Positions 21,888 through 25,561 of a DNA stretch of 64,000 bases are shown piece after piece (within the stretch, counting starts at the first letter, position 1; the number at the start of each line of letters is the position of its first letter). The translations under genes were made by a program, and so were the position numbers. Source of the DNA: Escherichia coli (GTDB lineage Bacteria > Pseudomonadota > Gammaproteobacteria > Enterobacterales > Enterobacteriaceae); NCBI RefSeq assembly GCF_044324875.1, contig NZ_CP172185.1. One strand, written 5' to 3'. Under the pieces are notes generated by a model. It was not told where the DNA came from and searched no databases. It worked only from the letters and a program-made list of their open reading frames with translations.

Positions 21888-22796
21888 ATGGCTGCCATTA
21901 ATACGAAAGTCAAAAAAGCCGTTATCCCCGTTGCGGGATTAGGAACCAGGATGTTGCCGGCGACGAAAGCCATCCCGAAAGAGATGCTGCCACTTGTCGA
22001 TAAGCCATTAATTCAATACGTCGTGAATGAATGTATTGCGGCTGGCATTACTGAAATTGTGCTGGTTACTCACTCATCTAAAAACTCGATTGAAAACCAC
22101 TTTGATACCAGTTTTGAACTGGAAGCAATGCTGGAAAAACGTGTAAAACGTCAACTGCTTGATGAAGTGCAGTCTATTTGTCCGCCGCACGTGACTATTA
22201 TGCAAGTTCGTCAGGGGCTGGCGAAAGGCCTGGGACATGCGGTATTGTGTGCTCACCCGGTAGTGGGTGATGAACCTGTGGCTGTTATTTTGCCTGACGT
22301 TATTCTGGATGAATATGAATCCGATTTGTCACAGGATAACCTGGCAGAGATGATCCGCCGCTTTGATGAAACGGGTCATAGCCAGATCATGGTTGAACCG
22401 GTTGCTGATGTTACCGCATATGGCGTTGTGGATTGCAAAGGCGTTGAATTAGCGCCGGGTGAAAGCGTACCGATGGTTGGTGTGGTAGAAAAACCGAAAG
22501 CGGATGTTGCGCCGTCTAATCTCGCTATTGTGGGTCGTTACGTACTTAGCGCGGATATTTGGCCGTTGCTGGCAAAAACCCCTCCGGGAGCTGGTGATGA
22601 AATTCAGCTCACCGACGCAATTGATATGCTGATCGAAAAAGAAACGGTGGAAGCCTATCATATGAAAGGGAAGAGCCATGACTGCGGTAATAAATTAGGT
22701 TACATGCAGGCCTTCGTTGAATACGGTATTCGTCATAACACCCTTGGCACGGAATTTAAAGCCTGGCTTGAAGAAGAGATGGGCATTAAGAAGTAA
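21888..22796 (+). CDS. galU: UTP-glucose-1-phosphate uridylyltransferase
   Basis: 302-aa ORF. Confidence 0.95.
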
Positions 22797-22820
22797 CATC
22801 CGTATCGGTGTTATCCACGA

Positions 22821-22851
22821 AACGGCGTTGAGCAATCGACGCCGTTTTTTT
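22821..22851 (+). terminator. Terminator after galU
   Basis: aacggcgt...acgccgtt hairpin plus T7 run. Confidence 0.7.
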
Positions 22852-22888
22852 ATAGCTTATTCTTATTAAATTGTCTTAAACCGGACAA

Positions 22889-22917
22889 TAAAAAATCCCG
22901 CCGATGGCGGGATTTTT
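22889..22917 (-). terminator. Terminator after hns
   Basis: aatcccgcc...ggcgggatt hairpin with flanking A/T runs. Confidence 0.7.
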
Positions 22918-22940: not shown

Positions 22941-23354
22941 TTATTGCTTGATCAGGAAATCGTCGAGGGATTTACCTTGCTCATCCATTGCTTTTTTGAT
23001 TACAGCTGGAGTACGGCCCTGGCCAGTCCAGGTTTTAGTTTCGCCGTTTTCGTCAACGTAGCTATATTTTGCCGGACGCTGAGCACGTTTAGCTTTGGTG
23101 CCAGATTTAACGGCAGCAAGGCTATTCAGCAGTTCGTTCGGGTCAATACCGTCAGCGATCAGCATTTCGCGATATTGCTGCAGTTTACGAGTGCGCTCTT
23201 CAACTTCAGCAGCAGCCGCGCTTTCTTCTTCGCGACGTTCGTTAACAACAACTTCTAATTTTTCCAGCATTTCTTCCAGCGTTTCAAGTGTACATTCTCT
23301 TGCCTGCGCACGAAGAGTACGGATGTTGTTCAGAATTTTAAGTGCTTCGCTCAT
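22941..23354 (-). CDS. hns: Nucleoid-associated protein H-NS
   Basis: 137-aa [23 protein letters not shown]. Confidence 0.97.
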
Positions 23355-23957
23355 TGTAGTAATCTCAAACTTATATTGGGGTGGTTTGTTGAGGTAATAA
23401 TAGAGCCTTAAATTCAGTTGTGCAATAGCCAGGAATGTAAGGAATTCAAAATTGTTCTTTATTTTGTGCCGCCAATAAATATCTTTTCATAAAATTAGCC
23501 AGAAAAGACGCGGCATATAGCCCTATTTGCGCCGATGATTTCGCAGCACGTGAGGTTAAAACTTCCTGATTCATGTCACATTTTATGGGGAGATTATCGT
23601 AGGCTGACGACCTTTCAGTCTTCTGTATTAGTCGTGTTTACGAGAATTCCCTATTAAGCGAATGATGAAAAGTAGAACAGTCGCAATAAGAGCAGGGACT
23701 TAGTATTGCACTATCTCCAGGAGGTCAACAGAGGGCTATTACTTGCGCAACAGGTTAAAGATTGTGAATAGTTACCAGCAGTCATTTACCCGCTTATAAC
23801 AAGCGAGGCAGTTGTAATGATAGCTCAGAAGGATTATGCAAGGCTTCGTAAGGGAGAACGCATATACCACTTCTGTGCATACTGTTGAGCTGAAAAACTG
23901 ACGAATTATGATAAACTCCAGCCAACTTTAATTCATATCATTGAGGGCCTGTGGCTG

Positions 23958-24575
23958 ATGGCACAGCTATATTTCTACTATTCCGCAATGAATGCGGGTA
24001 AGTCTACAGCATTGTTGCAATCTTCATACAATTACCAGGAACGCGGCATGCGCACTGTCGTATATACGGCAGAAATTGATGATCGCTTTGGTGCCGGGAA
24101 AGTCAGCTCGCGTATAGGTTTGTCATCGCCTGCAAAATTATTTAACCAAAATTCATCATTATTTGATGAGATTCGTGCGGAACATGAACAGCAGGCAATT
24201 CATTGCGTACTGGTTGATGAATGCCAGTTTTTAACCAGACAACAAGTATATGAATTATCGGAGGTTGTCGATCAACTCGATATACCCGTACTTTGTTATG
24301 GTTTACGTACCGATTTTCGAGGTGAGTTATTTATTGGCAGCCAATACTTACTGGCATGGTCCGACAAACTGGTTGAATTAAAAACCATCTGTTTTTGTGG
24401 CCGCAAAGCAAGCATGGTGCTGCGTCTTGATCAAGCAGGCAGACCTTATAACGAAGGTGAGCAGGTGGTTATTGGTGGTAATGAACGCTACGTTTCTGTA
24501 TGCCGTAAACACTATAAAGAAGCGTTAGAAGTCGGCTCATTAACGGCTATTCAGGAAAGGCATCGCCACGATTAA
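23958..24575 (+). CDS. tdk: Thymidine kinase
   Basis: 205-aa ORF with P-loop (NAGKST). Confidence 0.95.
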
Positions 24576-24793: not shown

Positions 24794-24808
24794 GGTAATG
24801 ACTCCAAC

Positions 24809-25312
24809 TTATTGATAGTGTTTTATGTTCAGATAATGCCCGATGACTTTGTCATGCAGCTCCACCGATTTTGAGAACGACAGCGACTTCCGTCCCAGCC
24901 GTGCCAGGTGCTGCCTCAGATTCAGGTTATGCCGCTCAATTCGCTGCGTATATCGCTTGCTGATTACGTGCAGCTTTCCCTTCAGGCGGGATTCATACAG
25001 TGGCCAGCCATCCGTCATCCATATCACCACGTCAAAGGGTGACAGCAGGCTCATAAGACGCCCCAGCGTCGCCATAGTGCGTTCACCGAATACGTGCGCA
25101 ACAACCGTCTTCCGGAGCCTGTCATACGCGTAAAACAGCCAGCGCTGGCGCGATTTAGCCCCGACATAGCCCCACTGTTCGTCCATTTCCGCGCAGACGA
25201 TGACGTCACTGCCCGGCTGTATGCGCGAGGTTACCGACTGCGGCCTGAGTTTTTTAAGTGACGTAAAATCGTGTTGAGGCCAACGCCCATAATGCGGGCA
25301 GTTGCCCGGCAT
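24809..25312 (-). CDS. insB: IS1 transposase InsB frame
   Basis: 167-aa ORF; A6C slippery site near 25246-25255 for InsAB' frameshift fusion. Confidence 0.9.
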
Positions 25313-25506
25313 CCAACGCCATTCATGGCCATATCAATGATTTTCTGGTGCGTACCGGGTTGAGAAGCGGTGTAAGTGAACTGCAGTTGCCATGTTTTAC
25401 GGCAGTGAGAGCAGAGATAGCGCTGATGTCCGGCGGTGCTTTTGCCGTTACGCACCACCCCGTCAGTAGCTGAACAGGAGGGACAGCTGATAGAAACAGA
25501 AGCCAC
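25231..25506 (-). CDS. insA: IS1 InsA (transposition inhibitor / N-terminal transposase part)
   Basis: 91-aa ORF with zinc-finger Cys pairs. Confidence 0.9.
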
Positions 25507-25561
25507 TGGAGCACCTCAAAAACACCATCATACACTAAATCAGTAAGTTGGCAGCATCACC

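Follow-up and report, generated by a model that had tools for sequence, protein, structure and literature searches.

The 603-bp interval between hns and tdk in Escherichia coli, very probably a long divergent control region without a product of its own

Does the long stretch of DNA that separates hns from tdk in Escherichia coli encode something of its own, or does it serve only to control its two neighbours? The divergent start codons of these genes flank a gap of 603 bp (23355-23957) in the 64,000-nucleotide stretch of E. coli DNA that was analysed (contig NZ_CP172185.1), called the window below, in whose coordinates all positions are given unless K-12 is named. The genes called in this part of the window are as follows.

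21888-22796, plus strand: galU
22941-23354, minus strand: hns, 137 aa, with its ATG at 23354
23958-24575, plus strand: tdk, 205 aa, with its ATG at 23958

By length, it ranks in the top four of the window's ORF-free stretches, whose median is 186 bp, and the original prediction for this locus, made from the letters of the window, rightly called it a large non-coding block. Comparison with K-12, a check which that prediction had proposed, gives an equivalent interval of 604 bp (NC_000913.3, 1292923-1293526) that is 98.8% identical, with seven substitutions and one 1-bp indel, and neither the RefSeq K-12 record nor the best-matching genome has an annotated feature in it. At an identity of at least 95%, the gap was found in 5422 of 5426 complete E. 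coli genomes, with a median of one place per genome, and no annotated feature lies beneath it among the E. coli matches listed. We consider it very probable that we have here a divergent control region of a conventional kind, if an unusually long one, without a product of its own. As regulatory DNA, the hns-tdk interval is already known and ordinary.

Twelve E. coli records labelled as plasmids in PLSDB (H21-H32) also contain the complete gap; several of them are 4.8-4.9 Mb long, and all are typed as non-mobilizable. We rejected the idea of plasmid-borne copies, since records that are chromosome-sized or non-mobilizable are mislabelled chromosomes or chromosomal contigs. On the other side of hns, the Rfam family frnS matches the convergent galU-hns gap (22815-22916) below threshold, with 28 bits where the gathering score is 60 (E = 0.044). 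The match spans a terminator-like hairpin of galU and ends within the terminator hairpin of hns; because of this overlap, it is most likely due to chance.

We considered how the gap is kept in relatives. A scan for Tdk with one genome per species yielded 80 Enterobacteriaceae loci, and the 78 with both genes in the fetched DNA were scored. All 78 keep hns and tdk side by side and divergent. Between them lie 489-673 bp in 68 of the 78, mostly about 550 bp, while the ten longer gaps comprise one of 712 bp (L074), eight of about 880-914 bp and one of 1750 bp (L025). The eight expanded gaps (L007, L027, L029, L035, L042, L047, L050 and L053, from Kluyvera, Pseudocitrobacter, Citrobacter sp. Awk 4 and others) hold about 330-360 extra bases, and no ORF is common to these loci. 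The 68 loci with gaps of at most 700 bp were aligned together with the window (69 sequences), conservation being the fraction of sequences that have the window's base, with the following ranges.

23355-23454: 0.75-1.00, hns leader, core promoter and upstream block
23455-23530: 0.33-0.62, moderate conservation
23615-23634: 0.64-0.72, conserved island
23635-23885: 0.12-0.49, essentially unconserved and unalignable between genera
23905-23914: 0.74, tdk -10 region

Across the family, the 106 bp adjoining hns (23355-23460) have 94-100% pairwise identity to the window, and 23355-23454 is better conserved than the synonymous sites of the adjacent coding sequence. When the gap was compared by blastn with plasmid-labelled Salmonella and Klebsiella records, only its first ~110 bp were detected. 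The elements recognized in this hns-proximal part are these.

23355-23390, minus strand: hns 5' UTR of 36 nt, starting at the published transcription start site (TSS) at 23390; 92-100% identical across the 69 Enterobacteriaceae sequences
23402..23397, minus strand: hns sigma-70 -10 hexamer TATTAT, from a promoter scan; conservation 75-100% across the family
23425..23419, minus strand: hns sigma-70 -35 hexamer, TGCACA or TTGCAC, from a promoter scan; conservation 75-100% across the family
23426-23460, no strand assigned: ultraconserved block AATGTAAGGAATTCAAAAT, 5'-adjacent to the hns -35
23458-23480, no strand assigned: palindrome TTTATTTTGTGCCGCCAATAAAT, a computationally predicted NagC-type operator, only partly conserved

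The supplementary TSS table of Kim 2012 places the start of hns at 23390, 36 nt 5' of the ATG, with an upstream sequence identical to that of the window. The promoter then reads TGCACA-16-TATTAT (23424..23397, minus strand), with the -10 at -12 to -7 from the published start, and it has the hexamers, the 16-bp spacing, the register with a mapped TSS and the core conservation expected of a sigma-70 promoter. The presence of the hns promoter in the gap, as originally predicted, is confirmed by the agreement of hexamers with published start and by their conservation. In the adjoining block at 23426-23460, conservation in the family alignment is 0.75-0.98 through 23454 and about 0.6 by 23460; this is probably a contact region for an activator or a nucleoid protein, or an UP element, although we infer the protein assignment. 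Beyond it lies atttattggcggcacaaaataaa, a weak NagC-type site in the tdk-hns interval according to a FITBAR prediction (PMC3098098).

Just inside hns, Term-seq shows an abundant RNA 3' end at 23328 (K-12 1292896-1292898, minus strand), 26 nt into the ORF. An end at this position implies a 5' fragment of the hns mRNA of about 60 nt. The pairing region of DsrA on the hns mRNA is presumably close to it.

The original prediction described the gap as AT-rich with A-tracts and as curved upstream of hns. The GC content of the gap is 0.401, which places it at the 4th percentile of 603-bp windows; the whole window has 0.497 and its pooled ORF-free DNA 0.426, and several other gaps are more AT-rich than this one; thus the gap is AT-rich relative to genes, and not relative to non-coding DNA. 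The GC content is also uneven, being 0.32 in 23355-23500 and 0.41-0.44 elsewhere in the gap. There are nine A/T runs of at least 4 bases, none longer than 5, at a density of 14.9 per kb as compared with 10.9 per kb for the window. By Fourier power, ranked against all 150-bp windows, A/T runs of at least 3 bases are phased at 10-11.2 bp at the 98-99.8th percentile across 23421-23680, whereas phasing is absent in 23640-23900 (5-35th percentile). This adds one feature to the hns side.

23421-23680, no strand assigned: zone of phased A/T tracts, predicted to be intrinsically curved, from Fourier power; taken as the upstream autoregulatory region of hns

The description of the gap as AT-rich with A-tracts therefore stands, with refinements: the GC content is low and the runs are denser and phased, but strong AT-richness and phasing are confined to the hns-proximal half, and the runs are short. 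Curvature upstream of hns fits the helically phased runs across 23421-23680, which directly support curved DNA at the level of sequence, in the hns-proximal half only.

AT-rich curved DNA is preferred by H-NS, and the hns promoter, whose upstream DNA has been studied to -313 (23703), is stimulated by Fis and repressed by ppGpp (PMC7601328). Our own scans add little to this. A strict consensus scan for the high-affinity H-NS motif TCGATAAATT, allowing at most 2 mismatches, found no match in the gap, although H-NS can bind without this motif, and a strict scan for the Fis consensus found no excess of matches in the E. coli gap; for such degenerate binders, consensus scans of this kind are uninformative. 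In work by Falconi, Ueguchi and La Teana, H-NS reportedly represses its own gene through sites flanking a bend near -150, and the hns promoter is said to have seven Fis sites and to be activated by CspA. Because the consensus scans gave no enrichment, the occupancy by H-NS and Fis that is assumed here is that of the older literature.

Family-wide alignment says little about the middle of the gap, and we therefore turned to constraint within Escherichia, using four lineages (the window, L003 and L004 as GTDB representatives, and L005, which is E. albertii). Neutral change was gauged by the tdk fourfold-degenerate sites, of which 38 of 80 (0.475) are invariant in all four lineages. For the whole gap the invariant fraction is 0.77, distributed as a mosaic of constrained blocks and near-neutral linkers.

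23355-23460: 0.98 invariant, hns leader and promoter
23461-23553: 0.71 invariant, upstream region
23554-23587: 0.97 invariant, CRP block
23588-23652: 0.52 invariant, linker
23653-23700: 0.81 invariant, constrained block
23701-23739: 0.49 invariant, linker
23740-23802: 0.87 invariant, constrained block with the candidate distal promoter
23803-23884: 0.60 invariant, linker
23885-23957: 0.86 invariant, tdk promoter and leader

A run of 86 bp that is invariant in the four lineages covers the hns 5' UTR and promoter. Judged by these fractions, the middle of the gap is more than inert filler. Two elements within it deserve separate mention.

23565-23580, no strand assigned: CRP site CCTGATTCATGTCACA, centred at 23574, from a dyad match and a published in vitro footprint
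23605-23634, no strand assigned: family-wide conserved island, GGATAAATATCArCCTTTnGTATTA in most genera, about 215 bp 5' of the hns TSS

The CRP site has 2 mismatches to TGTGA-N6-TCACA, with a perfect right half-site that is retained in Citrobacter and Salmonella, and it lies inside a 29-bp run (23559-23587) that is invariant in Escherichia. A CRP footprint listed under hns/tdk has been centred in vitro at K-12 position 1293142 (PMC12871828, a 2026 preprint). Of the island, E. coli keeps only the right part, CTTCTGTATTAG; the conservation peak here is 0.64-0.72, in otherwise unconserved DNA; the motif has partial dyad symmetry (AATATCA..TGTATT) and is half-degenerate in Escherichia, Citrobacter and Salmonella.

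Three further assignments in this part of the gap were considered and rejected. The majority consensus of the island, TATCAACCTTTTG, contains a perfect IHF core WATCAANNNNTTR, but the core is perfect in only 4 of the 78 orthologous gaps and has no match in the E. coli gap with at most 1 mismatch; since so few real sequences keep it, and E. coli none, the likeness to an IHF site is an artefact of the consensus. A second upstream hns promoter in the island (TATAAT/TTGATA in other genera) would have 15-bp spacing in either orientation and a poor copy in E. coli. Finally, 23754-76 has a TGTGA half-site, but its partner half is poor and the centre would be near -35.5 rather than at -41.5, which argues against a class II CRP site.

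The tdk side of the gap, of which the last ~50 bp are tdk promoter and leader, was absent from the original prediction. Four features are placed here.

23907-23917, plus strand: tdk proximal promoter with an extended -10, TGaTAAACT (the TG at 23909-10 and the hexamer at 23912-17), and an overlapping TATGAT at 23907-12
23924-23957, plus strand: tdk 5' UTR of about 34 nt, its extent deduced from the position of the -10
23754-23803, plus strand: Escherichia-specific constrained block with a candidate distal tdk promoter, from a 23-bp invariant run and published hexamers
23772-23800, plus strand: the candidate distal tdk promoter itself, TTACCA-17-TATAAC, with hexamers from genomic SELEX

In the 69 sequences, TATGnTAcAAT is nearly invariant and no -35 is conserved with it; the element reads TGATATAAT in Buttiauxella and TATGATAAACT in E. 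coli, where the proximal promoter also holds a 16-bp run invariant within Escherichia. These features suggest a well-supported extended -10 promoter. It resembles the class TGnTATAAT: most genera have TGnTACAAT and E. coli has TGaTAAACT, and the lack of a conserved -35 is shared. TAAACT, the hexamer of E. coli, matches less well than the family consensus does, and the promoter scan on this side returned TTGAGC-16-TATGAT, which is an alternative reading of the same DNA. Given the position of the -10, the tdk TSS would fall near 23924. The leader has a Shine-Dalgarno sequence, GAGGG, at 23943-23947, and TTGAgGGG or TTGGGG 5' of the ATG is conserved across the family.

Farther from tdk, the 23-bp run at 23754-23776, invariant in the four Escherichia lineages, overlaps, together with TTATAACAAG, TTACCA-17-TATAAC. 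A table of constitutive promoters from genomic SELEX gives the same two hexamers, TTACCA and TATAAC, for tdk (PMC3946193). In the 69-sequence alignment, the block 23754-23803 is not conserved outside the genus Escherichia, and we regard TTACCA-17-TATAAC as a candidate for a distal, genus-specific tdk promoter.

Put together, these elements suggest how the gap may work. On the minus strand, a sigma-70 promoter starts the hns mRNA at 23390 with its 36-nt leader. The ~70 bp 5' of this start are ultraconserved, and beyond them the phased A/T tracts, reaching to about 23680, would form curved AT-rich DNA. From established knowledge, H-NS would bind this curved DNA and repress its own promoter, and Fis would counteract it during growth. 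The CRP site is at 23574. On the plus strand, tdk would be driven by the extended -10 promoter, some 45 bp 5' of the ATG, and may have another, distal promoter near 23772-23800 that is specific to Escherichia. Between such elements, short constrained blocks alternate with linkers whose rate of change is close to neutral. The hns half of this scheme coincides with the K-12 hns promoter and autoregulatory region as studied to -313 (Gualerzi/Pon/Falconi and Mizuno groups), which has the same locus, TSS, hexamers, leader and phased tracts. Nothing substantive differs, except that the Fis and H-NS footprints of the older literature were not re-derived by consensus scans.

Insertion sequences offer an independent view of the upstream DNA, as this interval is an insertion hotspot in laboratory evolution.

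23429-23612, no strand assigned: zone of IS1, IS2, IS3 and IS5 insertions in laboratory evolution, from published insertion positions

Insertions of IS1, IS2 and IS5 have been reported at -75, -112, -116 and -258 from the hns ATG, that is, at 23429, 23466, 23470 and 23612 (PMC4786092), and a further one at -111 (PMC4166923), while an SNP at -22 was reported along with hns/tdk insertions (PMC4786092; PMC4166923). Strong up-regulation of hns accompanies the insertions (PMC9948715; PMC5691611). This rise is consistent with a net repressive role of the upstream DNA, and targeting of that DNA by H-NS is indirectly supported because hns rises when an IS separates the promoter from it, although outward-reading IS promoters might raise hns instead, with no loss of repression. 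The hotspot is the same interval as the gap, with insertions landing 75-258 bp 5' of the hns ATG, but the gap in the window is without an insertion. The 1750-bp gap in the type strain Phytobacter ursingii ATCC 27989T (L025:751-2500) owes its length to an IS5 with a 326-aa transposase, which lies 130-133 bp 5' of the hns ATG inside the conserved GCTAACTTAAATTT block and is flanked by a CTAA target duplication; this is the counterpart, in a culture-collection strain, of the laboratory-evolution insertions. In the window, a complete IS1 (insA and insB, minus strand) is found just 3' of tdk at 24794-25561, with a terminal repeat at 25539-25561. The corresponding tdk-adhE position has an ISZ'/insZ remnant in K-12 and an IS4 in strain CFSAN061763, and is therefore a polymorphic IS landing site.

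Promoters and binding sites do not account for everything. The length of the gap, about 550 bp, is conserved even though most of its sequence is not, which is mildly odd, and ordinary regulatory function alone does not explain it. We thus considered the possibility that the ~480 bp between the core promoters are a length-constrained architectural element or insulator, or that a new regulator binds one of the blocks. If so, the ~550-bp size and the conserved blocks at 23605-34, 23653-700 and 23754-76 would be kept for a structural role, possibly as an H-NS-bridged loop or topological buffer that sets the autoregulatory set-point of hns and shields tdk, or at least one block would be the target of a regulator so far unconnected with hns or tdk. 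In gain-of-function Dub-seq experiments, fragments with hns and tdk together give a larger fitness gain on phosphomycin than either gene by itself; the effect was left unexplained by the authors, who speculated on an intergenic contribution (PMC6338753). We hold this architectural or new-regulator reading to be unlikely.

A good deal less likely than this is an unannotated sRNA, possibly restricted to Escherichia, whose transcription would start from a constrained block, for instance from TTACCA-17-TATAAC at 23772-23800. The blocks at 23653-23700 and 23740-23802 are indeed constrained within Escherichia, and single-sequence folds of 100-nt windows gave z-scores of about -2.6 to -3.4 at 23555-23654 (plus strand) and 23780-23879 (both strands). 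These folds were rejected, as they were lost on consensus folding: with five Escherichia-lineage sequences, the consensus energy collapsed to -0.9 to -9.3 kcal/mol, compared with about -18 to -29 for the window alone, and no compensatory changes, hence no conserved RNA fold, were seen. The sole terminator-like hairpin in the gap (23601-23621) is weak and unconserved and has no T-run, and a search of Rfam found no match in the gap at E<=1. Published transcript maps, the second check that the original prediction had named, agree. The Kim 2012 list goes from hns directly to ychG, with no TSS in the gap other than that of hns, and the Term-seq data of Adams 2021 have no 3' end in the gap, the flanking ends being at K-12 1292475, 1292589 and 1292896 (hns, minus strand) and then at 1294198 (the tdk terminator). 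We found no mention of an sRNA at the hns-tdk locus in the literature searched.

The variable middle of the gap could also be the remnant of a decayed mobile element or pseudogene, and not regulatory DNA, given the insertions in evolution experiments, the IS5 of P. ursingii, the IS1 just 3' of tdk and the failure of 23635-23885 to align between genera. We think this slightly less probable again than an sRNA. The gap is single-copy in E. coli, its internal repeats are imperfect, only 10-15 nt long and in keeping with chance matches, and it has neither the multiple copies nor the terminal repeats of a REP, ERIC, MITE or IS remnant; no repeat is annotated in K-12. With a gap of ~550 bp in nearly all of the 78 loci, any remnant would pre-date the family, and the blocks inside it are under constraint in Escherichia; no protein-family signal was found.

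The least credible suggestion, that annotation has missed a protein of at most 50 aa, can draw on nine ORFs of 20-43 codons wholly inside the gap, but these have stops or frameshifts in other Escherichia lineages (several of them already in K-12), with the single exception of a 24-codon frame at 23418-23492 that is intact across Escherichia and Citrobacter, yet has TTG as its start codon in E. coli, is interrupted by a stop in Salmonella and lies on ultraconserved promoter DNA that is conserved for other reasons, while none of five gap ORFs tested matches Pfam and the current K-12 RefSeq annotation, with its many validated small proteins, is empty in the gap. The original claim that there is no CDS between hns and tdk is thus upheld by broken ORFs in relatives, by Pfam and by the K-12 annotation. 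Neither a conserved small ORF nor an sRNA, either of which was to count against that prediction, emerged from ORF conservation, Pfam, Rfam, consensus folding, TSS or Term-seq data, and its view that nothing here suggests a new element is supported: this is the known hns-tdk control region.

The discovery value of the locus is accordingly small, as it is among the most studied promoter regions of E. coli and a familiar target of laboratory evolution. What this analysis adds is a position-by-position map of the constrained and neutral parts of the 603 bp, a predicted extended -10 promoter for tdk that is well supported and invariant in the family, and conserved footprints at 23605-34 (family) and at 23653-700 and 23754-76 (Escherichia). 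The map helps to interpret the recurrent IS insertions and SNPs at hns/tdk, and it helps in the design of hns promoter constructs, for which the common boundary at -313 (23703) excludes the constrained block at 23740-23802.
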